Part shown: positions 5,490 through 34,052 of the stretch, in pieces
How the letters are laid out: every line of letters begins with the position of its first letter
Numbering within the stretch: the first letter of the stretch is position 1
Assembly (NCBI GenBank): GCA_021810725.1
Contig: JAJZIE010000001.1
Span: forward strand, 1-48,880
Reading direction: 5' to 3'
Source of the DNA: Bacillota bacterium
Lineage (GTDB): Bacteria > Bacillota > Sulfobacillia > JAJZYS01 > JAJYTV01
Length of the DNA: 48,880 nt
Program-made: the position numbers and the translations under genes
The notes under the pieces: generated by a model
Told to the model about the DNA's origin: nothing
What the model saw: the letters and a program-made list of their open reading frames with translations, nothing else
Database searches by the model: none

Positions 5490-5619
5490 ACCCGCTTAAG
5501 GGGAGGTTTTCGGCGCCTCATGCGAAAGGAGTAAATGGGAGACACTTTCCGGCCGCCGGGCTGTCGCGGCGGAAGTCCGCCGCCGCGGTCCCCTCGGGCC
5601 GATGGGGGAGGGACTCTTG

Positions 5620-6729
5620 ATGGCCAAGGTAGAGCCGAAGGAGCAACGTTGCCGGGCGATCCAAGTGACGCCTGGCAAGGCGCACAGCGCGAGACTTGGC
5701 GAGGAGCCCTACGCCAAGCCGACGCAGGGAGAGATCGGGCTCAAGGTGTTGCTCGTGGGCATCTGCGGCACCGACGCCGAGATCGAGGCGGGCCTCTACG
5801 GCGAGGCGCCGCCAGGCGAAGACCACCTCGTACCTGGGCACGAGTCGCTCTGCGAAGTGGAGGACGTGGGCCCGGGGGTCGTGGGGTTCCAACCCGGCGA
5901 CCTCGTGGTGCCGATCGTGCGGCGGCCGTGCCCCGAGAACTGCGAGCCCTGCAGCCGTGGACGCTGGGACATGTGCCTTACGGGCGACTACTCCGAGCGC
6001 GGCATCGCGAAGCTCCACGGCATGTTGCGCGAGCATCTCACGGACGAGGCGGCACACTGTGTCCTGCTGCCCGGTGACCTGCGCGATGTCGGCGTGCTGG
6101 TGGAGCCGCTCAGCATCGTCGAGAAGGCCATCGAGGAAACCATGCTGATCCAGCGCCGCACGGGTCTTGCGCCAAGGCGCGCCCTGGTCACCGGGGCCGG
6201 TCCGATCGGCCTCCTGGCGGCCCTCTGCCTGCGCGGGCGCGGCATCGCCGTCGACGTGCTCGACCAGCGGCCCGCGGGCAGTCCGAAGGCAGAGATCGCC
6301 CGCGCGGCGGGTGCCGGCTACATCGACGACTCGAAGACGCCACTCGAGCAGGCGACGGACGGCACCTTCTACGACCTGGTGCTTGAGGCGAGCGGCTACG
6401 CCCCGCTCGTGTTCCGGGCCTTGCGCCGGCTCGGCCGCAACGGTGCCATGGTGCTCACCGGCGTCACCGCGGGCCACCACAAGATCGAGCTCGACGTCGA
6501 CGCGCTCAACCAGGAGATGGTGCTCGAAAACCAGGTCCTGGTGGGGTCGGTGAACGCCGCGCGCCAGCACTACGAGGCCGCCGTGCGCGACCTCAAGGCG
6601 TGGCAGGAGACGTTCCCCGGTCTCGCCGCGCGGCTGATCACAGCGCGCCATCCGCTTTCCTCGTTCGAGGCCGCCCTGACCAAGGACCCCGACGGGATCA
6701 AGTCCGTGGTGGAGGTGGCGGGGCGGTGA
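5620..6729 (+). CDS. Zinc-dependent medium-chain dehydrogenase, glucose 1-dehydrogenase-like (archaeal GDH type)
   Basis: GICGTDAEI and PGHESLCEV zinc/catalytic motifs; GAGPIGLL Rossmann motif. Second ATG at 5620 chosen because GGGGGAGGGA lies 6 nt upstream. Confidence 0.75.
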   Translation: MAKVEPKEQRCRAIQVTPGKAHSARLGEEPYAKPTQGEIGLKVLLVGICGTDAEIEAGLYGEAPPGEDHLVPGHESLCEVEDVGPGVVGFQPGDLVVPIVRRPCPENCEPCSRGRWDMCLTGDYSERGIAKLHGMLREHLTDEAAHCVLLPGDLRDVGVLVEPLSIVEKAIEETMLIQRRTGLAPRRALVTGAGPIGLLAALCLRGRGIAVDVLDQRPAGSPKAEIARAAGAGYIDDSKTPLEQATDGTFYDLVLEASGYAPLVFRALRRLGRNGAMVLTGVTAGHHKIELDVDALNQEMVLENQVLVGSVNAARQHYEAAVRDLKAWQETFPGLAARLITARHPLSSFEAALTKDPDGIKSVVEVAGR

Positions 6730-8531
6730 AGTTCTACGGCTTCATCTCGAACGGCAGCACAGCGGCCCTGATCGACCCCTGGGGTTCGGTGGACTGGCTG
6801 CCCCTGCCCCGCTTCGACAGCCCGTCCGTCTTCACGCGCATGCTCGGCGGTGACGAGGCGGGGTCGTTCGCGATCGTGCCGCGGGGGACCTTTACCGCGA
6901 GCCAAGCCTACGAAGAGGGCACCAACATCCTGCGCACCACCCTCACCTGCGAGGATGGCAAGCTCGAGATCGTCGACTTCCTCTCGATCGGCCGCTCCGA
7001 GCTGCGACGGCTGGTGCGCAGCGATGTCCCGTTTGCCGTGCGCCTCAGGCCCCGCTTCGGTTATGGGCTCGTCTCCCCGGCCATCTCGACGGACGGGACA
7101 GGCGTGCTGATGCGCAACCCGCTCGGCCAGGAGGCCCTGCTCTTCACGATCGGCGGCCACGGCAAGCAGGGTGTGCTCGCGGAGGACCCCCTCTCGGGTG
7201 TCTGGCATTTGCCGAAGGGGCGCTACGACATCATCCTGCGCTATGTCGGCGACAGTCGCCGCGACCTCACCGAGACCGCGGCCGCCGTCCAGCAGGAGGC
7301 GTTGCAGGCCGAGCGGGACATCGCCTCGGAAGAGGAACACCGCACCTACCGGCGCAACGTGCAGTACTGGCGCGACACCGCCCGCTCCACCTACCGCGGC
7401 CCGTACCGCGACGCGGTCGAGCGCTCCTTGCTCGTGCTGCGCGGTCTCACCTACCGGACAACCGGTGCCCTGATCGCCGCGCCGACCACGTCCCTGCCGG
7501 AACTGCCTCATGGCACCCGCCAGTGGGACTACCGCTTCTCCTGGGTCCGTGACGGGGCGTACAGCGCGGAGGCACTGCTCGCGGCCGGCGACCATGTCGC
7601 GGCAAGGCGCTTCATCGAGTTCATGCTGGAGTGCGTCGACCTCCAGGGCAAGCCGTTCCAGGCCCCGTTCTTCCACGTCGATGGCACCCTGATCCGCGGC
7701 GAGCGGGATCTCGATTGGCTGCGCGGTTTCCTGGACTCGAGACCCTGCCGCGAGGGCAACGCCGCCACGGGCCAGCTCCAGCTCGATATCGAGGGCGACT
7801 TCCTCTGGGTCGTCTATCGCTACATCCAGGAGACGGGCGACGACGAGAGCCTCGCGGCCTGGTGGCAGATGATCAAGGCGATGGTCGGCTGGGTCGAGGA
7901 GAACTGGCAGGCCAAGGATGCGAGCCTCTGGGAGTTCCGCGGCCAGGATGCGCAGTATACGCACTCCAAGCTGATGTGCTGGGTAGCTCTGCGCTATGGT
8001 GCCGAACTCGCCGAACGCATCGGCGAGAAGGCGTACGCCGAGCGCTGGCAGGCTGCGGCGGCAGCGGTCCACCAGGCGATCGAGCAGCATGGCTTCGACC
8101 AAGCTGCGGGCCATTACACGCAGGCCTTCGATGACGGTGGCAAGCTCGACGCCGCCCTGCTCATGCTGCCGCTCTACGGCTACTGCGACGCGACGGACAA
8201 GCGCTTCGCCGCTACGCTCACGGCGATCGAGCGCGAGCTCGTACACGGCCACTGGGTCTACCGCTACGCCTCGGACATGCTCGGAACGGCGGCATTCCCG
8301 TTCGTTCTCTCCACTTCGCACCTCGCCCGGGTGCACATCCGGCGAGGGGAACCGGAGCGCGCGCGGGATCTCCTGGAGGGGCTCGTGCAGAGTGCGACCG
8401 ACCTCGGCCTACTGGGCGAGCATTGTGATATGGAGTCCGGGAGTCCTCGGGGCAATTTCCCGCAGGCGTTCTCGCATCTTGGTATCGTATTGGCGGCAAT
8501 CGAGCTCGAGGCGGCAAAGGGCGGAAGCTGA
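6726..8531 (+). CDS. Glycoside hydrolase family 15 (glucoamylase/glucodextranase/trehalase-like)
   Basis: N-terminus FISNGSTAALIDPWGSVDWLPLPRFDSPSVF; WDYRFSWVRDGAY motif; alpha/alpha-toroid-like C-terminal region. GTG start overlaps the dehydrogenase stop (GTGA). Confidence 0.8.
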   Translation: MKFYGFISNGSTAALIDPWGSVDWLPLPRFDSPSVFTRMLGGDEAGSFAIVPRGTFTASQAYEEGTNILRTTLTCEDGKLEIVDFLSIGRSELRRLVRSDVPFAVRLRPRFGYGLVSPAISTDGTGVLMRNPLGQEALLFTIGGHGKQGVLAEDPLSGVWHLPKGRYDIILRYVGDSRRDLTETAAAVQQEALQAERDIASEEEHRTYRRNVQYWRDTARSTYRGPYRDAVERSLLVLRGLTYRTTGALIAAPTTSLPELPHGTRQWDYRFSWVRDGAYSAEALLAAGDHVAARRFIEFMLECVDLQGKPFQAPFFHVDGTLIRGERDLDWLRGFLDSRPCREGNAATGQLQLDIEGDFLWVVYRYIQETGDDESLAAWWQMIKAMVGWVEENWQAKDASLWEFRGQDAQYTHSKLMCWVALRYGAELAERIGEKAYAERWQAAAAAVHQAIEQHGFDQAAGHYTQAFDDGGKLDAALLMLPLYGYCDATDKRFAATLTAIERELVHGHWVYRYASDMLGTAAFPFVLSTSHLARVHIRRGEPERARDLLEGLVQSATDLGLLGEHCDMESGSPRGNFPQAFSHLGIVLAAIELEAAKGGS

Positions 8532-8566
8532 GGCTTTCGCCCCAATGTCGCTTTGTATTCTGGGGC

Positions 8567-8596
8567 TTACCATAATAAGGATGTAATTGTATACTA
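8567..8596 (+). promoter_or_regulatory. Candidate sigma-A promoter (TTACCA-N17-TATACT) in an AT-rich island upstream of the envelope operon
   Basis: Read directly. Sits in the only clearly AT-rich stretch between 8532 and 8637. Confidence 0.3.
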
Positions 8597-8637
8597 GGGT
8601 CAGAATCCTCATGTGATCCTAGGAAAAGTGGCATAGG

Positions 8638-10389
8638 ATGAGCAGCAGTCGACCAACGCGCCGCCTTAGCGGCAATACGCAAAAAGGCGGGAAATGGGTG
8701 CCGAAGCACCTCAAAACGCGCCGGCGCCGTGTGCGACCGCTGCGCCTCATCATGGTCCTGGCGGCCCTTGCCGTGCTTCTAACCATCCTCCTGCGACCCA
8801 CCATCCCCAGTGCCGCCGCCGCCACCGCCGAAGCGGGCCTGCCGCAACAGGTCCAGCGGGCGCTGCCCAAGGATGTCCACCCCGTGCTGGTGAGCGGCAA
8901 GCCGCTCGTCGTGTCCCTGGGCGTGGGCAGGCAGCCGGCGACGGCCCTGATCGACGCGAGCGTCAAGGGCGGCGCGCCACATGTCTACGAAGTGCAGCTC
9001 GCATGGAATGGGGGCAACCTCGCCTCCGCGCAACTTGGCAAGGCCCTGCAGGCGGGCCACGGCACCTCCGACTACGGCCTCGGCGCCGCAGGCGGCTTCG
9101 CCTACTACGCCACCGCCGTGGCGGGACAGTTCCAGACCGTGACCCTGACGAAGAACGGCCTTGCGCGCTGGCTCTTCGCCCTCAGCGCACCCGCGGACCG
9201 CATCCGGCTGACGCCGAGCGGCACAAGGCTGTGGGTGGCGTTCGACGTCCACGGCACCTGGCGCCAGGGGTCCATCACCTTGAGCCAGGTCGCGCCGCGC
9301 AGTTCGTCTCCTGCCCTGGCGGCCGTGCAGAGCCAGGTGGCAAACGGCAATTCCCTCTTCATCCGGCTGGTCGAGGGTGTGCGCCAGTATTTCGGCAGCG
9401 GCATCGTCGCCGCCATCGAGGACGCCTACTACAACCTCGCGGACAGCGTGCAGCGGATCTACTACCACACGACGGGACAGCGGGCGCAGACGCCAAGTCT
9501 GGCCGTGGTTCGCCCGAAGGCGGTCCAGGCCAGCGTGGAAGCGGCGGCTCTGCCCAAGAACATCGTTCTGCCGCAGAGTTGGCCCAAGGCCGCGGGCGAG
9601 GGTGTCTGGCAGCCCGTCGGGCCGCTCGTCGGCGGACATCCCGCGATGGAGGAGACCTTCCTCCATCCCGATCCGCAGCGGCCGTGGGCCACGTCGTATC
9701 TGGTCTGGATCGATCCGCGGGCGCTCGCGGTGCACTATGAGACGGGTCTCAGCGAGCCGGTGAGCGCGTCCGGCGTCCACGGCAGCGGCATGCTGCCGAC
9801 CGACCCCGCCGTCGCAAGCCACGTCGTCGCCGCCTTCAACGCGGGCTTCAAGAGCGAAAGCACGAACTTCGGTGCGATGATGGACGGGGAGACGCTCGAC
9901 CCACCCGTCGCGGGCGTGGCGACGTTCGCCATCTACCAGGGAGGGCAGGTCGCGCTCGGCGCCTGGGGCAGCCGGACGGTGCCGAAGAAGGGACTCGTGT
10001 CGTTTCGACAGAATCTGCCCCTCATCGTGGATCATGGCCAGTTGAGCCCCTTGCTCGGGGATCCTCAGGCATGGGGCGTCGTGGTGGGCAACTCCACGTA
10101 CGTTTGGCGATCGGGGCTGGGCATCACGCCTGCCGGCGATCTCGTCTACGCGGCCGGAAACCCGCTTTCCGCATACACTCTGGCCGATACGCTGGTGGCG
10201 GCCGGCGCGGTGCGGGCCATGCAGCTCGACATCAACTCCTACTGGATCACCTTCAACTTCTACCGGTGGGTGGCGCAAGGGAGCGGCGGGTATCTCGTGG
10301 GCACGAAGCTGACGCCGGCGATCGAGCGCCCCGCAAACCGGTATCTGACGCCGGACACCCGGGACTTCTTCTACTTGACGACACCTTGA
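8638..10389 (+). CDS. Membrane-anchored secreted protein with a C-terminal phosphodiester glycosidase (NAGPA/DUF2233)-like domain
   Basis: Basic N-terminus followed by TM segment LRLIMVLAALAVLLTILL. The C-terminus RSGLGITPAGDLVYAAG...LADTLVAAGAVRAMQLD resembles the NAGPA R-x-x-x-G...G-A-x-x-A-x-N-L-D-G-G-G-S block. Confidence 0.55.
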   Translation: MSSSRPTRRLSGNTQKGGKWVPKHLKTRRRRVRPLRLIMVLAALAVLLTILLRPTIPSAAAATAEAGLPQQVQRALPKDVHPVLVSGKPLVVSLGVGRQPATALIDASVKGGAPHVYEVQLAWNGGNLASAQLGKALQAGHGTSDYGLGAAGGFAYYATAVAGQFQTVTLTKNGLARWLFALSAPADRIRLTPSGTRLWVAFDVHGTWRQGSITLSQVAPRSSSPALAAVQSQVANGNSLFIRLVEGVRQYFGSGIVAAIEDAYYNLADSVQRIYYHTTGQRAQTPSLAVVRPKAVQASVEAAALPKNIVLPQSWPKAAGEGVWQPVGPLVGGHPAMEETFLHPDPQRPWATSYLVWIDPRALAVHYETGLSEPVSASGVHGSGMLPTDPAVASHVVAAFNAGFKSESTNFGAMMDGETLDPPVAGVATFAIYQGGQVALGAWGSRTVPKKGLVSFRQNLPLIVDHGQLSPLLGDPQAWGVVVGNSTYVWRSGLGITPAGDLVYAAGNPLSAYTLADTLVAAGAVRAMQLDINSYWITFNFYRWVAQGSGGYLVGTKLTPAIERPANRYLTPDTRDFFYLTTP

Positions 10390-10425
10390 GGCCCTTCGGG
10401 GCGGTGGGGAAAGCGGTGCAGTGCC

Positions 10426-11778
10426 TTGTCGGCTACGCAGGCGGGACGAACACTCGAGATCGCGGGCTGGGGACATGCCGTGCGCCAACAGGCGGACGTG
10501 CTGCGGCCCGAGCAGCAGGGTCGCCTCGCTGAGGCGCTCCGCGGCCCGGGCATCGCCCGTGGCCTCGGCAGGGCGTACGGCGATGCGGCCCTCTCGCAGG
10601 GCAGGGTTTGGCAGACGACGCGTCTCAGCCGGATGCTGTCGCTGAGCGAGGCCGGCCTCCTGACCGCGGAGGCCGGCGTCTCCCTCGGCGACATCGTGCG
10701 CACCTTCCTGCCGCGCGGCTGGACCCTGCCGGTGACGCCCGGCACCCAGTGGGTTACGCTCGGTGGCGCCGTGGCGGCCGACGTGCACGGCAAAAACCAT
10801 CACGCCGCCGGCACCTTCGGCCAGCACGTCAAGGAACTTGTCCTGCTCACGGCCGACGGACAGCTCAGGCGCATTTCGCCCGAAGGCCAGAAGGAACTCT
10901 TCTGGGCCACCGTCGGCGGCATGGGCCTGACCGGCGTCATCGTAGAGGTGACGGTCCAGCTCGTGCCCGCCGAGACCGGCTATTTGAGCGTCGACTACGT
11001 CCGCACAGGCGGACTCGAGGAGACGCTCGAGTGGTTCTCCGGCCACGACCGGCAGTATCCCTACACCGTCGCCTGGATCGACGGCCTGAAGGAGGGTCAG
11101 GGGCTTGGCCGCGCCGTGCTGATGGGCGGCCGGGTGACCGCGTCCCGCGAACTCACGGCCGGCGAACCAAGGTACCCGATGCCGCGCGGCGCCGTCCGCG
11201 TGCCGTTCGACTTTCCGAAGGGCAGCCTGAGCCTGCCCGTGGGACGAGCCTTCAACGCGGCCTACTACGGCATGCATCGTCCCCGCCAGAACGCGCGCGA
11301 GCCGTGGTGGAAGTTTTTCTACCCGCTCGACGTCGCCGAAGACTGGTACCGGCTCTATGGGCGGACAGGATTCGCGCAGTACCAGGGCGTCTACCCGCCC
11401 GAGGTCGGTCTTGGAGAGATCCGCGCCATCCTGCGCCGTATCCACGCGGCGCGCCATCCGAATTTCCTCGGCGTGCTGAAGCGCATGGGGCCCGCGTCTC
11501 CCGGCATGCTCTCGTTCCCGCGCGAGGGGCTCACCCTGGCCCTTGACCTCCCGGTGCAGGGCGAGGGAACCCTGCGCCTGTTCCAGGACCTCTACGCGAT
11601 GACGGCGGACTACGGCGGGCGGGTCTACCTGGCGAAGGACGCCTTCCTCACGCCCTCGATGTTCCGCCGCATGTACCCAGGCTGGGAGGCCTTCCTGGCC
11701 GTCAAGGCCAAGGTGGATCCGCAGGGCATGTTCCGCTCCCTGCTCTCGGAGCGCGTCGGCCTCGGGGAGGTGCGCTAG
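10426..11778 (+). CDS. dprE1: FAD-dependent oxidoreductase, DprE1-like (decaprenylphospho-beta-D-ribofuranose 2-oxidase family)
   Basis: RGLGRAYGDAAL and GGAVAADVHGKNHH motifs typical of DprE1-type PCMH flavoenzymes; TTG start. Confidence 0.8.
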   Translation: MSATQAGRTLEIAGWGHAVRQQADVLRPEQQGRLAEALRGPGIARGLGRAYGDAALSQGRVWQTTRLSRMLSLSEAGLLTAEAGVSLGDIVRTFLPRGWTLPVTPGTQWVTLGGAVAADVHGKNHHAAGTFGQHVKELVLLTADGQLRRISPEGQKELFWATVGGMGLTGVIVEVTVQLVPAETGYLSVDYVRTGGLEETLEWFSGHDRQYPYTVAWIDGLKEGQGLGRAVLMGGRVTASRELTAGEPRYPMPRGAVRVPFDFPKGSLSLPVGRAFNAAYYGMHRPRQNAREPWWKFFYPLDVAEDWYRLYGRTGFAQYQGVYPPEVGLGEIRAILRRIHAARHPNFLGVLKRMGPASPGMLSFPREGLTLALDLPVQGEGTLRLFQDLYAMTADYGGRVYLAKDAFLTPSMFRRMYPGWEAFLAVKAKVDPQGMFRSLLSERVGLGEVR

Positions 11779-12507
11779 ATGCCCCCCGGCCGCATCGCCA
11801 TCCTGGGCGCAACCTCGACCGTCGGGCGCGCCATCGCGGCCGAGTACGCGCGCGGTGGGCGGGACCTCCTGCTCTGCGGGCGCTCGCTCGGCGAGGTGGA
11901 GCGCGTGGCGCAGGACCTCAGCCTGCGCTACGGAGTCGCCGCCGAGGCCTGTCTGCTCGACCCCGACCTTCCGGACTACCCGCAGGTGCTCTGGCGCCTC
12001 GAAGGCGGGCGGCCGCTCGGGGGCGTCGTCTGGGCGATCGGCACGATGTCGGCCGCCGCCGGGGGCGGTGGTCCCGACGAGATCCGCGAGACCACCTGGG
12101 TGAATTTCGGCGCCGCCGTGGCGGCGATCGAGGGCGTTCTGCCGGCCGTGGATCCGAAGGGTTTCATCGTGCTCCTGTCTTCGGTGGCTGGTGAGCGAGG
12201 CCGCAGGAAGAACTACGTCTACGGCGCGGCGAAGGCGGCCCTCACCACCTACGGTCAGGGCCTCAATCACCGGCTCGCGGGGCGCGGACCGCGGGTCACC
12301 GTGGTGCAACTCGGTGTCGTCGACAGCCAGATGACCTGGGGCATGTCCGGCGGGCCCGCCGGGGCCGATCCCGAGCGGGTGGCGCGGGCGATCGTCCAGG
12401 CGGTGCGTGCCGGCAAGGGACGGGTGCACGTGCCGGCCGTCTGGGGACCGATCATGCTCCTGCTGCGCCTCGTGCCGGAGAGCGTCTTCAACCGCCTGCA
12501 GGTCTAG
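11779..12507 (+). CDS. dprE2: Short-chain dehydrogenase/reductase, DprE2-like
   Basis: ILGATSTVGRAIA glycine-rich motif; YVYGAAKAAL (YxxxK). ATG immediately follows the dprE1 stop. Confidence 0.75.
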   Translation: MPPGRIAILGATSTVGRAIAAEYARGGRDLLLCGRSLGEVERVAQDLSLRYGVAAEACLLDPDLPDYPQVLWRLEGGRPLGGVVWAIGTMSAAAGGGGPDEIRETTWVNFGAAVAAIEGVLPAVDPKGFIVLLSSVAGERGRRKNYVYGAAKAALTTYGQGLNHRLAGRGPRVTVVQLGVVDSQMTWGMSGGPAGADPERVARAIVQAVRAGKGRVHVPAVWGPIMLLLRLVPESVFNRLQV

Positions 12508-12521
12508 GGGAGGGTAGGGCC

Positions 12522-13439
12522 ATGGCGAACGCGGAGCTGCAGATCGGCGAAATCCCCGCGGAGATCGGGCAGGGCAGGGGCCTGTGGCGCCTGATGCGCC
12601 CGCGCCAGTGGATCAAGAACCTCCTCGTCTTCGCGCCGCTGATCTTCGCCGACGACTTCCTGCGCCTCAAGGACCTGCTGCCGGTCGCCCTGGCCTTTTT
12701 CTCCTTCTGCCTGCTCTCGAGCGCCGTCTACATCGCGAACGACTGGCGCGACCGCGAGGAGGACAGCCGCCACCCTAAGAAGCGGACGCGGCCACTGGCG
12801 AGCGGGCAGGTCTCGCTCGAGGCGGCCGGTGCCCTCCTCGCCGTGCTGCTGGCTCTGGGCCTGGGGCTCGCCTTCCTGAGCGGCCCCTGGGTGCTCCTCG
12901 TCGCAGCGCTTTTCCTGCTCGTCAACGTCCTCTACACCTACATCCTCAAGTCGCAGCTCTTCCTCGACGCCTTCGGCATCTCCGCGGGGTTCATGCTGCG
13001 GGCCCTCGCGGGGGCCGTCGCGATCGGCGTCGCGTTCTCGCCCTGGCTCTTCGCCCTCGTTCTGCTGCTCACGCTCTTCCTCGCCTTCGGCAAGCGGCGC
13101 AGCGAGCTCAGGGCTTCCTCGGCGCCCGAGCAGCACCGCGAGGTGCTCGGGCGCTACACGGCGCCGCTCCTCGACCAGATCCTCGGCGTGCTCGTCTCGA
13201 GCATGATCGGCGTCTACGCGATCTACTCCTTCGACCAGCCGCTGCATGCGCACGCCTTCATGCTGACGATCCCCTTCGTCATCTACGGCCTCTTCCGCTA
13301 CCTCTACCTGCTCTCGGCGAACGACCGCGAGAATCCGGACGAGCTCCTCGTCACCGACTGGCCGACGCTCGTCAATCTTGGCCTCTGGGGCGTCACGGTC
13401 GTCGCCATGCTGGTGCTGAACCGGCAGGGTGTCCTGTGA
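12522..13439 (+). CDS. UbiA-family prenyltransferase, decaprenyl-phosphate phosphoribosyltransferase-like
   Basis: RPRQWIKNLLVFAPLIFA N-terminus; NDWRDREEDSRHPKKRTRPLASG Asp-rich motif; about 8 TM segments. Confidence 0.85.
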   Translation: MANAELQIGEIPAEIGQGRGLWRLMRPRQWIKNLLVFAPLIFADDFLRLKDLLPVALAFFSFCLLSSAVYIANDWRDREEDSRHPKKRTRPLASGQVSLEAAGALLAVLLALGLGLAFLSGPWVLLVAALFLLVNVLYTYILKSQLFLDAFGISAGFMLRALAGAVAIGVAFSPWLFALVLLLTLFLAFGKRRSELRASSAPEQHREVLGRYTAPLLDQILGVLVSSMIGVYAIYSFDQPLHAHAFMLTIPFVIYGLFRYLYLLSANDRENPDELLVTDWPTLVNLGLWGVTVVAMLVLNRQGVL

Positions 13440-13942
13440 AGCGGTACCTGATCTCCGTGCCGAGCGTCGGCGACGTCCCGCTGCGACAGCTCATGGAGAT
13501 GGGCGTGCGCGGACTCATCTTCGACCTCGACAACACGCTCGTCAGGCCACACAGCGACGAGGTTCCCACCGCGACGTCGCGGCTGCTGAGGGAGGCACAG
13601 GAACTTGGCCTCGCCACCGTGATCGTCTCGAACAGCAGGGCGACCCGCGTGGAGCGGCTGGGGCGGCGCATGGGGATTCCGGTCGTCGCGAAGGCGCGCA
13701 AGCCCTTCGCCGCCGCCTACCGCAAGGGACTCGCCGTGCTGGGACTCCCGGGCGGGCAGGTCGCCGCCATCGGCGACCACTTCCTCACCGACGGGCTTGG
13801 GGCCCTGCGCCAAGGCATGCCGCTGGTGCTTGTCGATCCGATCAGTCGGGAGGAGGACTTCCTGGTGTGGGCGGCCCGCCCCGTCGACTTCATCCTGCGC
13901 CGGCTGCTTCTCGGAGAAAGGCGCGGCCCCTCGAGCGCCTAG
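13436..13942 (+). CDS. HAD-superfamily subfamily IIIA phosphatase (YqeG-like)
   Basis: FDLDNTLV, VSNS, KP and IGDHFLTD motifs. GTG start overlaps the UbiA stop (GTGA). Confidence 0.75.
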   Translation: MKRYLISVPSVGDVPLRQLMEMGVRGLIFDLDNTLVRPHSDEVPTATSRLLREAQELGLATVIVSNSRATRVERLGRRMGIPVVAKARKPFAAAYRKGLAVLGLPGGQVAAIGDHFLTDGLGALRQGMPLVLVDPISREEDFLVWAARPVDFILRRLLLGERRGPSSA

Positions 13943-15676: not shown

Positions 15677-16312
15677 TCAGATGGACCGCCAGAGTGACAT
15701 CAGCCATGGGATGGCCACAAGCCCCACCCCCTCGAGCAGCACGATGCCCGCGAGGGTCGTGAAGACATACGGGAGGTACGCGGCGCTGCGACGCAGCTCC
15801 TTGCGCACGTCGCCCAGGGCGCTGCGGCGGTAGCGGGCGATCGAGTCGCTGAGCGGCAGACCCAGCTGCGCGTCTCGCGAGAGCAGAGCGACCAGCCGGT
15901 CCGTCTCCGGTGTGCGCAGACTGAGGCGCAGGCCGTCGAGCGCGGCGGCGACGCTGTGCCCCTCTTGCACCCGATCCTGAAAGGACCTGAGGGCCGGACC
16001 CAAGGGGTCCTGCGCCCAGAGCCCCGCGTAGCGCAGGGCCGCGTGCAGCGGCTGGCCGGCGGCGGCGGCCATCGCGAGGTCGGTGAGAAGGCCGGGAACG
16101 GCCCGCCGCACCTGATCGCGGGCGCCGCTTTTGGCGAGGGCCGTCGGGAAGCGCCGCCAGAGCATCGCGGCAGGCCCGGCCAAGGCAAAGAGGGCCATGC
16201 CCCAGGGCGCGAGGAGTGCCAGGCCGATCCAGATCGGCAGCAGCAGGGGGCGCTGCCGGCCGGCGCGCCAAAGCGCCATGGCCAGCACCAGACGTGGAAG
16301 TGCCGCGATCAT
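15677..16312 (-). CDS. tadC: T2SSF-domain membrane protein, TadC-like (short, 211 aa)
   Basis: VPGLLTDLAMAAAAGQPLHAALRYA block typical of GspF/TadBC domains, with flanking TM segments. Start overlaps the tadB stop. Confidence 0.7.
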   Translation of the reverse strand: MIAALPRLVLAMALWRAGRQRPLLLPIWIGLALLAPWGMALFALAGPAAMLWRRFPTALAKSGARDQVRRAVPGLLTDLAMAAAAGQPLHAALRYAGLWAQDPLGPALRSFQDRVQEGHSVAAALDGLRLSLRTPETDRLVALLSRDAQLGLPLSDSIARYRRSALGDVRKELRRSAAYLPYVFTTLAGIVLLEGVGLVAIPWLMSLWRSI

Positions 16313-17016
16313 GGCAGGAGCGCGGACGCGAGATAGGGCACGCCGCCACCCGTCACGAGCGCCAGGGCGATGAGCCAGGGAATGGGAGCGTTGCCTTCGG
16401 CCGCGAGCACCAGCCCCGTGAACAGGAGGGCCGTGGCCATCAGGCCCGTGACCACGAAGTAGGGCAACGTCTCACCCTCCACGCTCGCCACCTCGCGCCG
16501 GTCGTCCGCCGCGTCCTCGAGCAGCACCGCAAGGTGGCGGTCCAGGGGCGCTCCCGTGTGTCGGCTGAGCGCGAGGGCCCTGGCGAGCCGGACCAGGAGC
16601 CCGATGCCGGCCCGTTGCCCAACATCGGCGAACGCCGCCTCGCTCGAGCCGCCGCGCAGCCAGTCCGCCAGGGCGGACTGCCAGAGCGGGCGCAGGTCGT
16701 CGCTGCAGGCCGGCAGGGCCGCCAGGGCGCAGAGCTCCGCGCTGCCGTAGAGCGAGGCCTGTTCGAACATGGCCTGGATCGGCTCCTCCGCCGCGACCGC
16801 GAGACGTCTAAGGCGCGCGTGCCGCAGATACTGGCGAAGACCCGCCTGCCAGAGCGCGACGGACGCCGCGGCCGCGAGCGCGACCGCAAGCCCCGAGGCC
16901 AGGGCGACCGCGAGCGCGACGAGCGGCGGCAAGAAACGCGCCATGCGCCGCGCGCCACCTGTAGCGAGGCTCGCGCCGAGCAACGCGACCGCGGCCAGGA
17001 GCACCGCGCCGTTCAT
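16309..17016 (-). CDS. tadB: T2SSF-domain membrane protein, TadB-like (235 aa)
   Basis: N-terminal TM, cytoplasmic helical domain, C-terminal TM pair. ATG at 17016 overlaps the tadA stop (ATGA); the upstream part of the 318-aa track ORF is an Arg/Pro-rich artefact. Confidence 0.65.
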   Translation of the reverse strand: MNGAVLLAAVALLGASLATGGARRMARFLPPLVALAVALASGLAVALAAAASVALWQAGLRQYLRHARLRRLAVAAEEPIQAMFEQASLYGSAELCALAALPACSDDLRPLWQSALADWLRGGSSEAAFADVGQRAGIGLLVRLARALALSRHTGAPLDRHLAVLLEDAADDRREVASVEGETLPYFVVTGLMATALLFTGLVLAAEGNAPIPWLIALALVTGGGVPYLASALLP

Positions 17017-17948
17017 GGCCACACCTGCCCGCCACGGCCCTCGTCGTATTGCAGCAGCATAGTCGGCCGGCGCTGTCCGCCGCTCCCGCGCTCGAGGTGC
17101 ACCACGCCGCCGAGGAGATGGCGCAGTCTGACGCGCAGCAGGCGAGGCGGCATGCTGCGGGCCGGAGCGGCCGCGTACACGAGACGTTCCGTCACGTCCC
17201 AGGCCGAGGTGGCGTGCAAGGTCGTCAGGCTGCCGCGATGGCCGGTGTCGAGGGCGGAGAGCCACGCCACCGTCTCGCGCCCGCGGATCTCCCCGACGAT
17301 GATGCGGTCTGGACGCATGTGCAGGGCGAGCCGCAGGAGGTCCTCGAGGTCGATGGCGTAGAGCCCGGCGCGGTTGGGAGAGCGCGTTTCCAGGGCGACG
17401 ACGTGCGGGTGGACACGGCCAAGTTCAAGCTCGCGCGTCTCCTCGATGGTCAGGAGCCGTTCGGATGGGTCGATGACCTCCGCGAGCAGGCGGACGAGCG
17501 ACGTCTTGCCGGTGCCGGCCGCGCCCGCGATCACGACGTTGCGGCGGTTTTTCACCCAGGAGCGCAGGATGCGCATCGGCCGCTCGTCCCCGTCGAGTGC
17601 CTCGAGCCATGCCCGCTCGAGGTCCACCTTGGCCACCTTGCGGATCGTCAGGGTCGGGGCGGGCGTCAGGGGCGGCATGGTGGCGGTGAAGCGCACGCCG
17701 TCGCCAAGTCGTCCGTCCGCGTAGGGCGAGGCCTGCGTGAGTTCGCGCCCCAGCGGCAGCAGCAGCCGCTCGATCAGCTCCTGCAGGGCGCGGCGGTCCG
17801 GGAAGGTCGCCGGTTCGGGGCCGACCTTGCCGCGCCGCTCGACGAACACGCGGTCGAAGTCGAGCACCATGATCTCGCTCACCTCCGCATCCCTGAACGC
17901 GGCCTCGAGCGGGCCGAGCCAGTAGCCGAGGTGCGTCTCAAAGGGCAT
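17013..17948 (-). CDS. tadA: Secretion ATPase of the TadA/CpaF/VirB11 (T2SSE) family, short form (311 aa)
   Basis: Walker A GAAGTGKTS; Asp box LLTIEETRELEL; Walker B RMRPDRIIVGEIRGRE; His box TGHRGSLTTLHA. ATG at 17948 lies 10 nt after GGGGAG. Confidence 0.85.
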   Translation of the reverse strand: MPFETHLGYWLGPLEAAFRDAEVSEIMVLDFDRVFVERRGKVGPEPATFPDRRALQELIERLLLPLGRELTQASPYADGRLGDGVRFTATMPPLTPAPTLTIRKVAKVDLERAWLEALDGDERPMRILRSWVKNRRNVVIAGAAGTGKTSLVRLLAEVIDPSERLLTIEETRELELGRVHPHVVALETRSPNRAGLYAIDLEDLLRLALHMRPDRIIVGEIRGRETVAWLSALDTGHRGSLTTLHATSAWDVTERLVYAAAPARSMPPRLLRVRLRHLLGGVVHLERGSGGQRRPTMLLQYDEGRGGQVWP

Positions 17949-18813
17949 GGTCCGCCGTCTCCCCGCGCCGGCGCCAGATCTCCGCTCCATGGCGCGCGAG
18001 GGTCTGTCTGCGCAGGGGAAGGCGTCCCGCCGGCACCTCGGTCAGGGCGGCGAGCGGCGCGAGACCCGCGAGCCAGCGCCGGTACTCGTCTTCCACCGCG
18101 GCTGCGGCGAGCAGGATGTCGCTCGCGTGCGCCAAGGACGCGATCAGGCCGCGGTCGCCGAGATTCGCGCTCGCGCGCACGACCACATGCCGCTCGCCGC
18201 GGTCGCGCTCGAGCCGGTCGAGCAGCGGCTCCATGCCGGAGCGCAGCAGGAGCTGCGGCTGGATCGGAGCCGGCACGACCCTCAGCCTCCGCGGGTAGCC
18301 CGGTAGCTCCTGGGACTGCCCCGACGACATGTACGCGGCTAGGCATGGCTTGAGCTTCAAGCGGCGCGCGTACTGGGGTTCGGCCGTATCCGTCTCGACG
18401 AGCAAGGTGCTGCGGCTGCGGGCCAGGTGGCAGGCGACGGCGAGGGCCACCACCGCCCCCTGGCCGGCATCCCCCGGCGCCACGACCACGGCCAGCGCCG
18501 GCTGCTCGCCGGACGGCTCGCCGCGCAGCTCCGCGGCGAGGTCGTCGAGTGCCAGATCGCCGCGGGCGGTGAAGCGTCCGCGCAGCCACGCGATCTCGGC
18601 GTCGGGGTGTACCACCTCGATGCGGCGCAGGGCCCGCTGCTCCTCGCCCGAGCGCACAAGACCGGGATCGATGACGACGCGGGCGTACTCCTCGTGCAGC
18701 ATGCGGTCTTCCGTCTCGGCCAGGGACAGGGTCAGGGGTTGGCCGTAGACGGCCGCACCGCGCTCGTGCAGCTGCAGCACCGTCTCAGGATGCAGGGCGT
18801 AGAGCGAGCGCAA
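17938..18813 (-). CDS. tadZ: TadZ/CpaE-like assembly protein with a degenerate MinD/ParA-type P-loop
   Basis: Position between cpaB and tadA. LAVVVAPGDAGQGAVVALAVACHLARSRSTLLVETD aligns to the CpaE xxGAKGGVGxTTxAxNLA...LVDLD block but lacks K and G-K-T. TTG start lies 6 nt after GTAGGAGGGA. Confidence 0.5.
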   Translation of the reverse strand: MRSLYALHPETVLQLHERGAAVYGQPLTLSLAETEDRMLHEEYARVVIDPGLVRSGEEQRALRRIEVVHPDAEIAWLRGRFTARGDLALDDLAAELRGEPSGEQPALAVVVAPGDAGQGAVVALAVACHLARSRSTLLVETDTAEPQYARRLKLKPCLAAYMSSGQSQELPGYPRRLRVVPAPIQPQLLLRSGMEPLLDRLERDRGERHVVVRASANLGDRGLIASLAHASDILLAAAAVEDEYRRWLAGLAPLAALTEVPAGRLPLRRQTLARHGAEIWRRRGETADHAL

Positions 18814-18824
18814 GGCAATCCCTC

Positions 18825-19394
18825 CTACTCTTGCGGCGTGGCGGTGATGATCAGGTGGCCCGCGGCGACGCCCGCGAGGAGCGCCGGGAGAAGCGCCTTG
18901 GATACCTCGAGAGCGACAGAGGCACCGGTGCCGCCGGGCGCCACCTGCGCCAGCGGCACCAGAGACTCCGGCGCCTGCCCGGCCTGGGCGATGTAGACGG
19001 ACACCAGCTGTCCCGCCGAGAGTGGCGGTGCGCTTAGGAGGGCGCCTGCCGGGATGCCGACCACCTGGCCGCCGGCGCTGGACCTCGCGGGTCCCACCCT
19101 GACCGCGCTGCGCAGGAGAGGTAGGCCCGCGGCCAGCGGGACCGCGAGCCGTCCTTCGGGCCGACGGAGGAGGGGTCCCGGCAGTTTGCCCGTCCAGTGC
19201 GCCTGCCGCACGTCGGCGGCAGTCAGGGAGGTGCCTGCGGGGAGATTCCGCGCGGCTACGAGGATGGTTTCGCCAGAGCCGAGAGTTGCCGCCTCGAAGG
19301 CCAGAAAGGCGAACAGGGCGCTCAGCACCGGCAGCCAGAGGGGGTCGCGCAGGCGCTCAGCGAGGGCGCGCAAACTGGGGACGCGTGTCGACAA
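18825..19394 (-). CDS. cpaB: CpaB/RcpC-like Flp-pilus assembly protein (TM anchor plus SAF domain)
   Basis: TM segment LWLPVLSALFAFLAF, then ILVAARNLPAGTSLTAADV (SAF-like). TTG at 19394 lies 9 nt after GGAGAGGAGG. Confidence 0.6.
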   Translation of the reverse strand: MSTRVPSLRALAERLRDPLWLPVLSALFAFLAFEAATLGSGETILVAARNLPAGTSLTAADVRQAHWTGKLPGPLLRRPEGRLAVPLAAGLPLLRSAVRVGPARSSAGGQVVGIPAGALLSAPPLSAGQLVSVYIAQAGQAPESLVPLAQVAPGGTGASVALEVSKALLPALLAGVAAGHLIITATPQE

Positions 19395-21063
19395 GGCGCA
19401 GTTCCTCCTCTCCAAGCTGTACCGCAAAGGGCAGCGTGCCGAACTCATCCAGCAGCAGGGCCTCGCCGGGGCGGCAAGACCTGAGAAAGTCCAGGGCGCG
19501 ATCGGAGAGGCGGAGAACTTCCTTGAGGCGAGGCAGATCGCTCGGCTGCTGGTGGAAGAGCGTCAGGCGGCCGGCGTTGGCGAGCACGAGCCTGCCTCCT
19601 GTCGACTCCACGAAGTCGCCAACGTTCTGGGTGACGATCGTGACGATGAGGCCGCGCTTGCGCGCCCGCTTGGCGAGGTCGACGAGCGCGTCCTCCGCGC
19701 CGCCGGCTCCCAGCCAGAGATGAGCCTCGTCGAGGGTGAGCCAGAAGGGCTGACGCAAGGCCAGGGCCTCTGCCGAGGAGATGGCGTAACGGGCGGCCTC
19801 ACCCAGCAGGGACGGCCAGGCCGCCTGCGGCAGGCTGCGCAGCGACAGGGCCAGACGGGTCGGGCCCTGGGCGTCTGCGGGCAAAGCCGCGCCCGACTCG
19901 CCGCCCAGATGCCGCACGACGGGCAGGTACTCGCCCTCCGGATCGACCACGAGCAGGTAGTCCGGCCGCTGTCGAAGGAGTTCCGCCTTAACGAAGGCCG
20001 ACTTGCCATGCCCGGGGCTTCCCAGTACCACCGCCATCGGGTTGGCGGCGTGGAGGCGGTCCCGCCGCACGGAGGTGCGGTCCCTGAGGTGCACGCCGAG
20101 CTGGTCGCCTTCGGCGGCGGGCGCCGCGGCGGGCGTCAAGTCCAGGCAGGAGAGGGCGGTGGCCGTGAGCAGGCGGGCCGGTGGCTCGCGCCTGCTCGGC
20201 AACGGCAGGAGCCAGTCCTGCTGGGCCGCCTGCAGGCCCAACTGCACTTGCAGGAGGAAGCCCATCTCGGCGAACGTGGTGCGCATGAGGGCCGCTTGCG
20301 CCTCACATCCGCCGCGGTCCGATCCCTCGGCCGCGATCAGCCACGCCGTGGCAAAGAGGCGCTCCCGTCCCTCCACGATCACCTCGCGCAGCTTGAAGGC
20401 ATCCTCTTGCGCCTTCTCCGTCTCGACGTCCGGCAGGCGGCCACGCTGGCGGCGCAGGAAGGAACTCGCGTGCAGGTGCTGCAGCCGCCGCTCCAGGCGG
20501 AGCCGTGCTTCCGCCGCGGAAAGCGGGCTGAGCCGCAGGGCCACGATCGCGGTCTGCGAGAGGGACCACAGCCGCTCGAGGCTGAGCTCGTCCAACTGCT
20601 CCGGATAGGACTCCACCGCCATGAGCTGGCGGAAGCCGGTGCCCGCCTCCAGAAGGCGCATATGGGCGCGGGGCCCTGTGCGGCCCGACGTGGGGAAGGC
20701 CGCGCGCGGTCGGGCGGTCACCCGTCCGGTGCCTGCGAACCAGTGGGGCAAGGCGGGATTGGCGATGGCCCAGCGAAGCTCGGCCGGTGGTTCCTCTCCG
20801 AGCGGCCGAGCCGCAATGCCCAGGTCTTGCAGGGCCTGTTGGTTGCCCGCGCCCTCCTGGAGCCAGAGGTAGAGGTGGCGGAGCGCGGCCTGTAGCGAGA
20901 GCGTGAAGAACAGGGGACCCTGCACGGAGAGCAGGAAGTTGCGCAGCGCGACCTGATGGGCGTCGCGTTCCTCGGCACCCAGCCAGGCGTATTCCCTGCG
21001 ACCGAGCTCATAGATGGTGCCGGCGGGCAGGTGTGCGTCGAGGGAGTGCGGCGACCATCGCAT
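19357..21063 (-). CDS. virB4: VirB4/TraE/PrgJ-family conjugation-type ATPase, compact (568 aa)
   Basis: Walker A VVLGSPGHGKSAFVK followed by LLVVDPEGEYLPVVRHLGG; Walker B FWLTLDEAHLWL; LIVTIVTQNVGDF. The N-terminal LGAEERDAHQVALRNFLLSVQGPL block is typical of Gram-positive VirB4. Confidence 0.8.
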   Translation of the reverse strand: MRWSPHSLDAHLPAGTIYELGRREYAWLGAEERDAHQVALRNFLLSVQGPLFFTLSLQAALRHLYLWLQEGAGNQQALQDLGIAARPLGEEPPAELRWAIANPALPHWFAGTGRVTARPRAAFPTSGRTGPRAHMRLLEAGTGFRQLMAVESYPEQLDELSLERLWSLSQTAIVALRLSPLSAAEARLRLERRLQHLHASSFLRRQRGRLPDVETEKAQEDAFKLREVIVEGRERLFATAWLIAAEGSDRGGCEAQAALMRTTFAEMGFLLQVQLGLQAAQQDWLLPLPSRREPPARLLTATALSCLDLTPAAAPAAEGDQLGVHLRDRTSVRRDRLHAANPMAVVLGSPGHGKSAFVKAELLRQRPDYLLVVDPEGEYLPVVRHLGGESGAALPADAQGPTRLALSLRSLPQAAWPSLLGEAARYAISSAEALALRQPFWLTLDEAHLWLGAGGAEDALVDLAKRARKRGLIVTIVTQNVGDFVESTGGRLVLANAGRLTLFHQQPSDLPRLKEVLRLSDRALDFLRSCRPGEALLLDEFGTLPFAVQLGEEELRLVDTRPQFARPR

Positions 21064-31635: not shown

Positions 31636-32334
31636 GTGGTCAGGCTGAACGTAGAGGCGGTCGTGTTCGATCTCTTCGGGACCCTCGTGCCGAGCTTTTC
31701 CGCGGAGGCTTACGAGCCCTGCCTTGTCGCGATGGCTGACGACCTCGCCGTCCCGCTGGCGTCGTTTCGCCGGGTCTGGAACGGCCAGCTTTGGCAGGAC
31801 CGCGTGCTGGGGCGCTTTGCCGACGCCCAGGAGAGCATCGCCCGTGCCTGCGAGGCCCTGGGTGCCAGGCCGGGTGAAGACGCGGTGGAGCGGGCCCTGG
31901 AGCGTCGGCTCGAATACGAGCGCTCGCTGCTCAGGCCCTTCGATGACGTACTGCCCACCTTCGCGTGGCTGCGCGGGCAGGGACTGCGCATTGGACTCAT
32001 CAGCAATTGCGCCATGGAACTCCTGCCGCTTTGGGAAGAGACCGAGATCGCCCAGGGGCTTGACGCCGCGGTGCTGTCCGCGGCGGTGCACCTGGCGAAG
32101 CCCGACCCGCGCATCTACGAGCTCGCCTGCAGCCGGCTCGAGGTGGCGCCGAGCGGCTGCCTCTACGTGGGCGACGGCAGCGACGACGAACTGCCCGGCG
32201 CCAGGGCGGTCGGGATGCAGGCGGTGCTCATCGCCGCACGCCGAGATCTCGCGGGGCGCCGGCGACAGCCCGACGTGAACTGGGATGGGACCAGGATCGA
32301 GCGCCTCGCCGATCTCAAGCGGCTTCTGGCCTAG
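31636..32334 (+). CDS. HAD-superfamily hydrolase (subfamily IA)
   Basis: VVFDLFGTLV; LISNC; KPDPRIY; YVGDGSDDEL. Confidence 0.75.
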   Translation: MVRLNVEAVVFDLFGTLVPSFSAEAYEPCLVAMADDLAVPLASFRRVWNGQLWQDRVLGRFADAQESIARACEALGARPGEDAVERALERRLEYERSLLRPFDDVLPTFAWLRGQGLRIGLISNCAMELLPLWEETEIAQGLDAAVLSAAVHLAKPDPRIYELACSRLEVAPSGCLYVGDGSDDELPGARAVGMQAVLIAARRDLAGRRRQPDVNWDGTRIERLADLKRLLA

Positions 32335-33039: not shown

Positions 33040-33208
33040 GGTGGAAACCTCCCTGCCGCAGACTGCCGGTCCGCTCTTCCTTCTGCGGCCCGTGGGCGGG
33101 TCTCCTGCCGACTTCGCATGCCGCCAGGCCTGAACGGGTAGCCTCCTCGCAGTGCGGGCCGCACGCGCAACACCACGGAGGCTCGGATGCGGCCAGAGGG
33201 GAGACGGC

Positions 33209-34039: not shown

Positions 34040-34052
34040 GGAGGAGCCTTTC

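Follow-up and report, generated by a model that had tools for sequence, protein, structure and literature searches.

The DNA analysed here is a stretch of 48,880 nt from a Bacillota bacterium (about 69% G+C; one contig was examined, and the whole stretch is called the window). It contains five plus-strand genes which are likely to form one operon with a conserved promoter at about 8567-8595, and which would together make a polyprenyl-phosphate-linked D-arabinofuranose (Araf) donor from phosphoribosyl pyrophosphate (PRPP) at the cytoplasmic face of the membrane. Pathways of this kind are already known to be widespread. What is unusual here is the first gene, which codes for an ectoprotein with the fold of NAGPA, the last gene, which codes for a HAD phosphatase of the PgpP type, and the lack of a linked flippase and a linked GT-C glycosyltransferase. 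The features of the operon are, in order:

8532..8637, plus strand: AT-rich intergenic region with a promoter-like site and a conserved 5' untranslated region (5'UTR) up to ATG 8638 (GC 0.44, promoter scan, conservation)
8638..10389, plus strand: extracytoplasmic protein, 583 aa, with a divergent NAGPA/DUF2233-fold domain (transmembrane scan, AlphaFold AF2 model, Foldseek)
10426..11778, plus strand: DprE1-like FAD-dependent polyprenyl-phospho-ribose 2'-oxidase, 450 aa, TTG start (NF053785, PDB match, residues)
11779..12507, plus strand: DprE2-like short-chain dehydrogenase/reductase (SDR), 242 aa, start codon abutting the DprE1 stop (adh_short, PDB match)
12522..13439, plus strand: UbiA-type polyprenyl-phosphate 5-phosphoribosyltransferase (PPPRS), 305 aa, about eight transmembrane segments (NF008977, PDB 8j8j)
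13436..13942, plus strand: HAD-IIIA phosphatase of the YqeG/PgpP family, 168 aa, candidate 5-phosphatase for polyprenyl-P-ribose-5-P, start overlapping the UbiA stop (GTGA)

The proposed pathway begins with the UbiA-type enzyme, which on the best reading of its sequence would transfer ribose-5-phosphate from PRPP onto polyprenyl phosphate to give polyprenyl-P-ribose-5-P. In a Bacillota the carrier would probably be undecaprenyl and not decaprenyl phosphate; the decaprenyl of the initial annotation of this DNA is not implied. The 5-phosphate would then be removed, a step for which the coupled HAD phosphatase is the best candidate (with moderate confidence). The DprE1-like flavoenzyme would oxidise C2' of the ribose, the DprE2-like reductase would bring the keto sugar into the arabino configuration to give polyprenyl-P-Araf, and the donor would finally be flipped outward and used by transferases from unlinked genes. 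Directly observed are the layout of the genes, the families to which they belong, the catalytic motifs, the promoter conservation and the repeated linkage of the genes, whereas the chemistry of the steps, the nature of the lipid, the substrate of the HAD and the role of the NAGPA-fold protein are inferred from what is established for the families.

Operon and core enzymes

The five open reading frames (ORFs) have a third-position GC of 0.86-0.95 and thus look like real genes in such a high-GC genome. They are closely spaced: a 36-nt gap follows the first gene, the TAG of the DprE1-like gene is followed at once by the ATG of the DprE2-like gene, a 14-nt gap precedes the UbiA gene, and the UbiA stop overlaps the HAD start. 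Genes and junctions are exactly as the initial annotation had described them. The AT-rich promoter island that it had placed before the first gene is also found; with a GC of 0.44 it is among just five such dips in the window, and a promoter scan finds the promoter-like sequence TTACCA-17-TATACT in it at 8567-8595. The TATACT of the -10 region and the 5'UTR block TCATGnGATCCTAGGAAAnGTGGCnTAGnATGAGC are invariant across the window and the loci L004, L005 and L090 (L-numbers label the loci of relatives that were compared with the window), while the flanks diverge, and in the window and the three related contigs the invariant block reaches ATG 8638. Promoter and start codon are supported by this conservation within divergent surroundings. 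A regulatory RNA in the AT-rich leader or elsewhere was ruled out, since no Rfam family reaches its gathering score anywhere in the window. No terminator-like site is found between the five genes on the plus strand, the one exception being weak consensus matches within the UbiA gene (12680-12695). The 36 nt that precede the DprE1-like gene fold no better than shuffled sequence (z = +1.2).

The initial annotation assigned the oxidase, the SDR and the UbiA protein to DprE1, DprE2 and Rv3806c, and this is supported at 31-40% identity to Rv3790, Rv3791 and Rv3806c. The DprE1-like protein scores 421.5 bits on NF053785 (residues 10-446 against model positions 3-449 of 449) and 77 bits on the next family. 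It has a VAO-type FAD-binding domain (PF01565, 60.4 bits) and an ALO-like C-terminal domain (PF04030, 35.2 bits), both above their gathering scores, and its best PDB matches are DprE1 of M. tuberculosis and M. smegmatis at about 300 bits (301 for M. tuberculosis, 39.5% identity). A phmmer alignment to the PDB DprE1 indicates that the equivalents of His132, Lys134, Gln334, Gln336 and Lys418 are kept, and these residues are invariant in the 18 diverse non-actinobacterial homologues that were aligned. The cysteine to which the initial annotation had pointed, Cys387, is the residue attacked by benzothiazinones, and its mutation gives resistance (PMC3035642). The corresponding residue here is Ala372, as it is Ala in 18 of the 18 homologues, and the enzyme is therefore predicted to be insensitive to benzothiazinones. 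It should be noted that all public calls seen start this gene 18 codons later, at GTG 10480 (432 aa), while relatives are called at 450 aa. The longer form starting at TTG retains a conserved GWG strand which aligns with M. tuberculosis DprE1 and which the later start removes.

The DprE2-like protein matches adh_short with 70.7 bits and has the GxxSxxG, Ser and YxxxK motifs. The PDB gives a single match for it at E<=1e-10, namely DprE2 of M. tuberculosis in the DprE1-DprE2 complex (21gq_C; 81 bits, 33% identity). The UbiA protein scores 259.2 bits on NF008977 (decaprenyl-phosphate phosphoribosyltransferase), above the cutoff of 234, and 19-46 bits on the models for heme-O, ubiquinone, menaquinone and chlorophyll synthases. 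Its match to Rv3806c (PDB 8j8j) amounts to 117 bits and 31% identity, which is the level at which Citrobacter ORF15 was proved biochemically to be a PPPRS (PMC11127046). The NDxxDxxxD motif (NDxRDxExD) is kept, with ANDWRDREED aligned to VNDVRDVEAD of 8j8j, and a simple scan finds eight hydrophobic segments where the family architecture has about nine.

Several observations speak against the proposed pathway. The score of the DprE1-like protein lies below the NCBIfam equivalog cutoff of 500 bits for NF053785; the DprE2-like protein reaches 122.3 bits on NF053786 against an equivalog cutoff of 250, and it scores higher on the generic SDR model PRK07102 (178.9 bits), yet below the cutoff of that model as well. 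Strict orthology is thus not established for either protein. The cutoff of 500 bits may be tuned to actinobacterial orthologues, which is an assumption of ours. Furthermore, the pathway is incomplete at its outer end. A simple hydrophobicity scan of all likely genes of the window finds no GT-C transferase, in agreement with the initial annotation, the only multi-pass membrane proteins being UbiA and two proteins resembling the F component of type II secretion systems (T2SS-F), and neither the operon nor the rest of the window contains a MATE, SMR or GtrA flippase.

The HAD phosphatase

The last gene had been annotated as a HAD phosphatase. This identification stands and can be narrowed to the YqeG/PgpP family, while a role in the pathway is plausible rather than proven. 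The protein scores 98 bits on TIGR01668, above the cutoff of 89.1, and 34.7 bits on PF09419 (PGP_phosphatase), and the HAD motifs I-IV are intact (DLDNT, SNS, KP and GDxxLTD, here GDHFLTD). YqeG was shown to be PgpP, the essential and near-universal phosphatidylglycerophosphate phosphatase of Firmicutes (Grundling et al., PNAS 2025, PMC11804483), and this makes a housekeeping role a serious rival to a role in the pathway. The HAD would then be the PgpP of the cell and a chance neighbour of UbiA, and the 5-phosphate would be removed by another enzyme or as a side activity of PgpP. We lean slightly against this explanation, which may well hold: the protein belongs by a curated cutoff to the family of an essential enzyme, no second YqeG copy is found on the one contig examined, and the related clusters of L001/L010 and L006 have no HAD gene. 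These points count equally against assigning the HAD to the pathway.

The position of the gene and its rate of change point the other way. The yqeG gene normally lies in a conserved yqeG-yqeH operon (PMC11804483), whereas the gene in the window is found outside this context, following UbiA with a start that overlaps the UbiA stop codon. The margin on TIGR01668 is narrow; the HADs of such clusters score 87-110 bits against 140-187 for ordinary YqeG, and the orthologue in L004 with 87.5 bits falls below the cutoff. The HAD is also the fastest-diverging gene of the neighbourhood, at about twice the rate of its neighbours, with 58% identity where DprE1 has 85% and 48% where DprE1 has 79%; for comparison, PgpP of B. 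subtilis and S. aureus are 59% identical. Fast divergence and low YqeG scores fit an accessory copy. The relatives with more than 50% identity and a readable context (L004, L005 and L090) all sit in a DprE/UbiA cluster.

A phosphatase gene or domain is found beside the PPPRS in several other lineages. In ten of the loci a HAD domain of the phosphoribose phosphatase (PRP) type (PF12710) is fused to UbiA, and in the Bacillota locus L012 a divergent PAP2 gene lies two bases upstream of UbiA. In M. tuberculosis the slot is occupied by the PAP2 protein Rv3807c and in a phage by a separate gene for a PRP (PMC11127046). The HAD of the window is not of the PRP type, which was ruled out by a score of 7 bits on a profile made from six proteins with PRP fused to UbiA; a role in the pathway would mean that it was recruited independently.

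We consider it plausible that the HAD removes the 5-phosphate from polyprenyl-P-ribose-5-P. The likeness to YqeG/PgpP extends to the substrate, because phosphatidylglycerophosphate is a lipid-phospho-polyol with a terminal phosphate (PMC11804483), as is the substrate proposed here, and by the curated model the two proteins share the HAD-IIIA family and the catalytic motifs. They differ in that the HAD of the window lies behind UbiA, has a low family score and evolves fast.

The NAGPA-fold protein

The protein of the first gene has an Arg-rich N-terminus, a hydrophobic helix at 34-52, a beta-rich domain at 80-214, a helical hairpin at 240-279 and a NAGPA-fold domain at about 325-581. One transmembrane segment is predicted, and AxA-like sites follow the helix, which is either a signal peptide or an anchor. 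The public start of the gene varies between 8698 (563 aa, NCBI/ENA) and 8638 (583 aa, JGI); the ATG at 8638 and the leader are conserved in four species.

Its description as NAGPA-like in the initial annotation holds for the fold and fails for the motif. An AlphaFold (AF2) model built on 39 homologues has a pLDDT of 85 and a pTM of 0.81, and a Foldseek search with the C-terminal domain matches the Bacteroides DUF2233 protein 3ohg (E 1.5e-10; TM 0.60 on target), zebrafish NAGPA 6pki (1.8e-9) and vertebrate NAGPA (1.8e-9 to 5e-8). The fold is confirmed solely by structure prediction. The match to PF09992 reaches 23.6 bits, under the gathering score of 25 which is passed by the relatives in L039 (28.3) and L046 (29.6), and it ends exactly at Asp531. 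In NAGPA an invariant DGGGS loop binds GlcNAc-1-phosphate, a catalytic Asp is followed about 30 residues later by an Arg, and the C1-O bond is cleaved with phosphate as leaving group and retention of configuration (PMC13474241). In the window protein DGGGS is replaced by L-D531-I-N-S, and all 39 members of the aligned subfamily have a loop of the type LD(I/L/M)(N/H)(S/P/A/D/N), in which LD is invariant and Asn present in 37, and none has GGGS. Conserved Arg residues follow 37-44 residues downstream of the Leu-Asp. A PDB profile search gave just spurious matches to designed Kelch repeats, so that the correspondence of the catalytic Asp and Arg is inferred and not aligned; D531 would be the Asp of the NAGPA motif, as suggested by the Pfam match ending exactly there.

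Compared with NAGPA, the "uncovering enzyme", and bacterial DUF2233 (PF09992; 3ohg, 6pki), the protein thus shares the predicted fold of its C-terminal 260 residues, the extracytoplasmic location and probably the Asp and Arg. It differs in the lack of DGGGS, in the Pfam score below threshold, in the additional N-terminal beta domain and helical hairpin, and in that its gene is tied to a pentofuranose donor pathway. A NAGPA-like fold with a remodelled sugar-phosphate site argues against a GlcNAc-1-phosphodiester as the substrate.

Whether the gene belongs to the pathway at all can be judged from its neighbours in other genomes. As a rival explanation, the gene might have no part in the pathway and be an unrelated neighbour, coding for instance for a separately controlled cell-wall hydrolase. 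We regard this as unlikely. The gene lies under the single conserved promoter of the operon, 36 nt from the DprE1-like gene and with no terminator-like site between them. Among 80 metagenome loci, picked solely via similarity to the first-gene protein (34-54% identity), UbiA, DprE1 or DprE2 is found within 3.5 kb of the NAGPA-fold relative in 12; counting just the 43 loci that have 3 kb of flank or more, the figure is 10. The gene orders of the linked loci vary, some clusters being flanked by two or three paralogues (L133, L147, L152 and L161), and a neighbour-joining tree of the domain spreads the linked members over at least four separate branches. The DprE1 proteins of the linked metagenome loci are nearest to those of Actinomycetota (45-62% identity) and not close to DprE1 of the window, so that two divergent DprE1 lineages are involved. 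In L006 the NAGPA-fold gene stays with UbiA, DprE1 and DprE2 though every flank differs. In the Acidimicrobiia-type loci L039 and L046 it is paired with these genes in convergent orientation; the two loci have close proteins and the common order sucC-UbiA-DprE1-DprE2-NAGPA-pcrA, although L039 comes from a metagenome-assembled genome (MAG) labelled Acidobacteria and L046 from an Acidimicrobiaceae MAG, and the former label may be a binning or naming error.

The rival of an unrelated neighbour draws on the converse sampling. Among the best 80 of at least 592 confirmed DprE1 relatives (one genome per GTDB species, picked by DprE1 similarity) a NAGPA-fold relative occurs near DprE1 in two (about 3%), and the Thermaerobacter-like MAG L001 has UbiA, DprE1 and DprE2 without it. 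Close and distant relatives of the NAGPA-fold gene (L007, L008, L009 and L092) adjoin two-component systems with no DprE genes in view. These findings reduce the support for a place in the pathway, and the scarcity among DprE1 loci means that only a minority of clusters have the NAGPA-fold gene as an accessory.

The relatives beside two-component systems are often preceded by genes for an OmpR-type response regulator, a HAMP histidine kinase and a small protein (about 100 aa). The loci L161 and L171 combine this two-component system with a NAGPA-fold gene and a UbiA-DprE1-DprE2 cluster. The grouping hints at a regulated envelope module. A limited literature search found no report linking DUF2233/NAGPA with DprE1.

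We conclude that the NAGPA-fold protein probably belongs functionally with the pathway, and that it most likely acts outside the membrane on a sugar-1-phosphodiester, which could be the lipid donor or a phosphodiester-linked product. Polyprenyl-P-Araf is such a diester, and the C1-O bond is the one broken by NAGPA; the lipid donor is thus proposed as a substrate. In this more specific form, to which we give a small chance, the ectoprotein would act directly on the donor, either as a GT-C-independent transferase to an envelope acceptor or as a hydrolase which frees the carrier lipid. It is speculative whether it would release the carrier from unused donor or transfer the sugar; PMC3937683 reports that in Corynebacterineae a stalled pathway sequesters the carrier with lethal effect. 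The large membrane proteins of the NAGPA-linked loci are mostly unrelated transporters, and two unannotated proteins with nine transmembrane segments lie inside such clusters (L133 and L152). The idea that the NAGPA-fold protein replaces a GT-C transferase is neither supported nor excluded.

Known systems, distribution and possible targets

A UbiA-type synthase, a flippase and a GT-C transferase make up a widespread system for extracytoplasmic glycosylation with pentofuranoses (Kelly, Duong, Nothof, Lowary, Whitfield, PNAS 2024, PMC11127046). Homologues of DprE1 and DprE2 are present where the sugar is Araf, and the gram-positive cases include Bacillus sp. NP157. The window operon resembles these three-component systems in its UbiA-type PPPRS, predicted to use PRPP, in a coupled putative phosphatase of the HAD superfamily, which in one reported case is likewise a separate gene, and in DprE1/DprE2 as the presumed auxiliary epimerase for Araf. 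It differs by having no MATE, SMR or GtrA flippase and no GT-C, by a phosphatase of the YqeG/PgpP-type HAD-IIIA family instead of a PRP-type HAD domain, and by opening with a NAGPA-fold ectoprotein, which is not mentioned in PMC11127046.

The systems that add ribofuranose (Ribf) and xylofuranose (Xylf) share the PPPRS entry step (PMC11127046), and this is the basis for another rival: the operon might yield polyprenyl-P-ribofuranose, the 2'-keto intermediate or another epimer, the SDR being no true DprE2 orthologue. The score of the SDR below the DprE2 cutoff, and its higher score on a generic model, would fit. We find this improbable. Xylf systems use a GalE-like epimerase and no DprE1/DprE2 pair, while in the surveyed glycans DprE1 and DprE2 accompany Araf (PMC11127046); DprE2 is the only strong PDB match of the SDR; and an oxidase followed by a reductase would be pointless were ribose the end product. 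That the genes code for an ordinary quinone or heme prenyltransferase, a lactone oxidase and a fatty-acid-type reductase, mislabelled via weak similarity, as one public annotation might suggest ("4-hydroxybenzoate polyprenyltransferase" for UbiA, "FAD/FMN-containing dehydrogenase" for DprE1), can practically be dismissed: the family scores (259 against 19-46 bits for UbiA, 421 against at most 77 bits on lactone-oxidase models for DprE1) rule out the prenyltransferase and lactone oxidase identities, and the best PDB matches are the M. tuberculosis pathway enzymes. Scores and matches thus place the proteins outside the unrelated FAD and SDR families and the menaquinone and heme-O prenyltransferases, and a donor of a lipid-linked, arabinose-like pentofuranose, as predicted in the initial annotation, remains the best reading of the sequences.

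In the decaprenyl-phospho-arabinose pathway of Corynebacteriales (Rv3806c, Rv3807c, Rv3790, Rv3791, Rv3789, Emb/Aft) DprE1 and DprE2 are also adjacent, and the same three core families with conserved catalytic residues lead to the same predicted sequence of reactions from PRPP to lipid-linked Araf. The differences are the identities of 31-40%, the Ala in place of Cys387, a HAD instead of a PAP2 phosphatase, the lack of a GtrA-like Rv3789 and of Emb/Aft genes near the operon, and the host, which is a high-GC, spoVT-bearing Bacillota. The glycosylation of the group IV pilin of Pseudomonas aeruginosa with D-Araf (PsPA7, TfpW) also depends on a non-actinobacterial PPPRS with DprE1/DprE2 making a polyprenyl-P-Araf donor, and among the loci compared the best UbiA matches outside the lineage of the window are from Pseudomonas (43%). 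In the window neither a TfpW-like GT-C nor a pilin gene was found, and genes resembling T2SS-E and T2SS-F on the opposite strand are tied to the operon just by synteny among close relatives.

To call the pathway mycobacterial-type, as was done initially, is at variance with its distribution as far as rarity is implied. A full HMMER pass over 1.84 billion representatives (50% identity clusters, E<=1e-30) gives at least 1,716 clusters of DprE1 relatives across nearly all phyla, and the system has been reported as widespread, Bacillus included (PMC11127046). The best 80 of at least 592 relatives come from Acidobacteriota, Pseudomonadota, Bacteroidota, Planctomycetota, Myxococcota, Actinomycetota (including Streptomyces) and Bacillota; in these a DprE2-like gene almost always follows DprE1, and UbiA lies within the examined flank in about 55 of the 80. 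The trio is kept in L001 and L006 despite entirely different flanks. The window proteins are no closer to the actinobacterial versions than to those of other phyla, so that the term describes the chemistry and not the ancestry.

The lack of a linked transferase is common: of 86 DprE1 loci, about half encode no large polytopic protein within 7 kb. Some relatives do have candidates. In the nearest relative (L001/L010), a "Bacillota bacterium" MAG which with 73% DprE1 identity is the nearest GTDB representative locus among the matches listed, a polytopic DUF2079 protein of 613 aa follows directly after UbiA; a metagenome search for this protein found nothing. Two Bacillota loci have a canonical set of genes. 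Bacillus solitudinis (L029) combines UbiA with a PF03706 membrane protein, DprE1, DprE2 and a GT-C enzyme of the PMT_2 type. The low-GC Bacillota MAG L012 (1833-16119) has a complete mycobacterium-like set in one cluster, with a giant GT2 protein, two large unannotated polytopic proteins, DprE1, DprE2, the divergent PAP2 protein (DUF212), UbiA, an NAD epimerase, a flavin amine-oxidase-like protein and GtrA.

Proteins with PF03706, the transmembrane or flippase-like region of the MprF lysyl-PG synthase, recur beside UbiA in Bacillus solitudinis (L029, 8959-9921), in a NAGPA-linked DprE cluster (L152, 11156-12253) and near a NAGPA-fold gene (L007, 3924-4967), and they may be candidates for a lipid-sugar flippase. 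In L001/L002/L010 (1657-9158, 13061-14902) two giant proteins of 819 and 1,672 aa with SLH and CarboxypepD_reg-like matches and a mannose-1-phosphate guanylyltransferase gene are found near the trio; in these genomes the target may be glycosylation of the S-layer or of a secondary cell-wall polymer. A limited literature search found no report of arabinose in Thermaerobacter envelopes or of an arabinose polymer for the lineage.

After the HAD gene comes a convergent methyltransferase gene, and just downstream of the operon, at 15677-21063 on the minus strand, lie genes for a T2SS-F-like protein (211 aa), a T2SS-E/CpaF-like ATPase, a SAF-domain protein, two unannotated proteins and a Walker A protein of 568 aa. 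By analogy with the pilin of P. aeruginosa this cluster was considered as a glycosylated pilus and rejected, no pilin-like small ORF being present upstream of it; a tie to the operon was rejected as well, since the two co-occur solely in close relatives sharing all flanks and not in L001 or L006. At 5602-8531, directly upstream of the operon, lie two genes, one glucose-dehydrogenase-like and one resembling a GH15 trehalase (596 bits on the TreH1 model, below its cutoff). They look like a pair for trehalose catabolism with no relation to the operon; L004, L005 and L090 have them in synteny, but in L006 they are not found upstream. Since their ORFs as listed share about 130 nt, one start is probably called too early.

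The wider context, metG-tatD-ksgA...ispE-purR-glmU-prs-mfd-spoVT, matches the metS...spoVT region of Bacillus subtilis, in line with the Bacillus-like synteny noted from the start, and the SpoVT protein shares a cluster (90% identity or above) with a protein named as Thermaerobacter sp. The host is taken to be a Thermaerobacter-like spore-former. Within the ksgA...ispE-purR-glmU-prs stretch lies a cyanophycin-synthetase-like gene (33750-36692; 980 aa with Cyanophycin_syn, ATP-grasp and Mur ligase domains). Two more genes of the HAD superfamily, convergent and not of the YqeG type, are found at 31636-32334 (plus strand) and 32347-33351 (minus strand); the longer ORF may be called too long.

If the proposed pathway is correct, Thermaerobacter-like Bacillota decorate some component of their envelope with D-arabinofuranose, a sugar best known from the mycobacterial wall. 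This would add one lineage to a broad picture and overturn nothing, and the leads given by the NAGPA-fold and HAD proteins are worth more. A HAD of the PgpP type coupled to a phosphoribosyltransferase would, if confirmed, be a third independent solution to the 5-dephosphorylation and a possible second function for the PgpP family. A NAGPA-fold subfamily which lacks the GlcNAc-1-phosphate loop and is repeatedly found beside DprE1, DprE2 and UbiA suggests that the metabolism of lipid-linked pentofuranoses has an accessory enzyme not yet described, and the linkage gives an uncharacterised bacterial family a testable substrate. Should the NAGPA-fold protein act on the donor, the operon would be a self-contained module of donor and user in high-GC Gram-positives.

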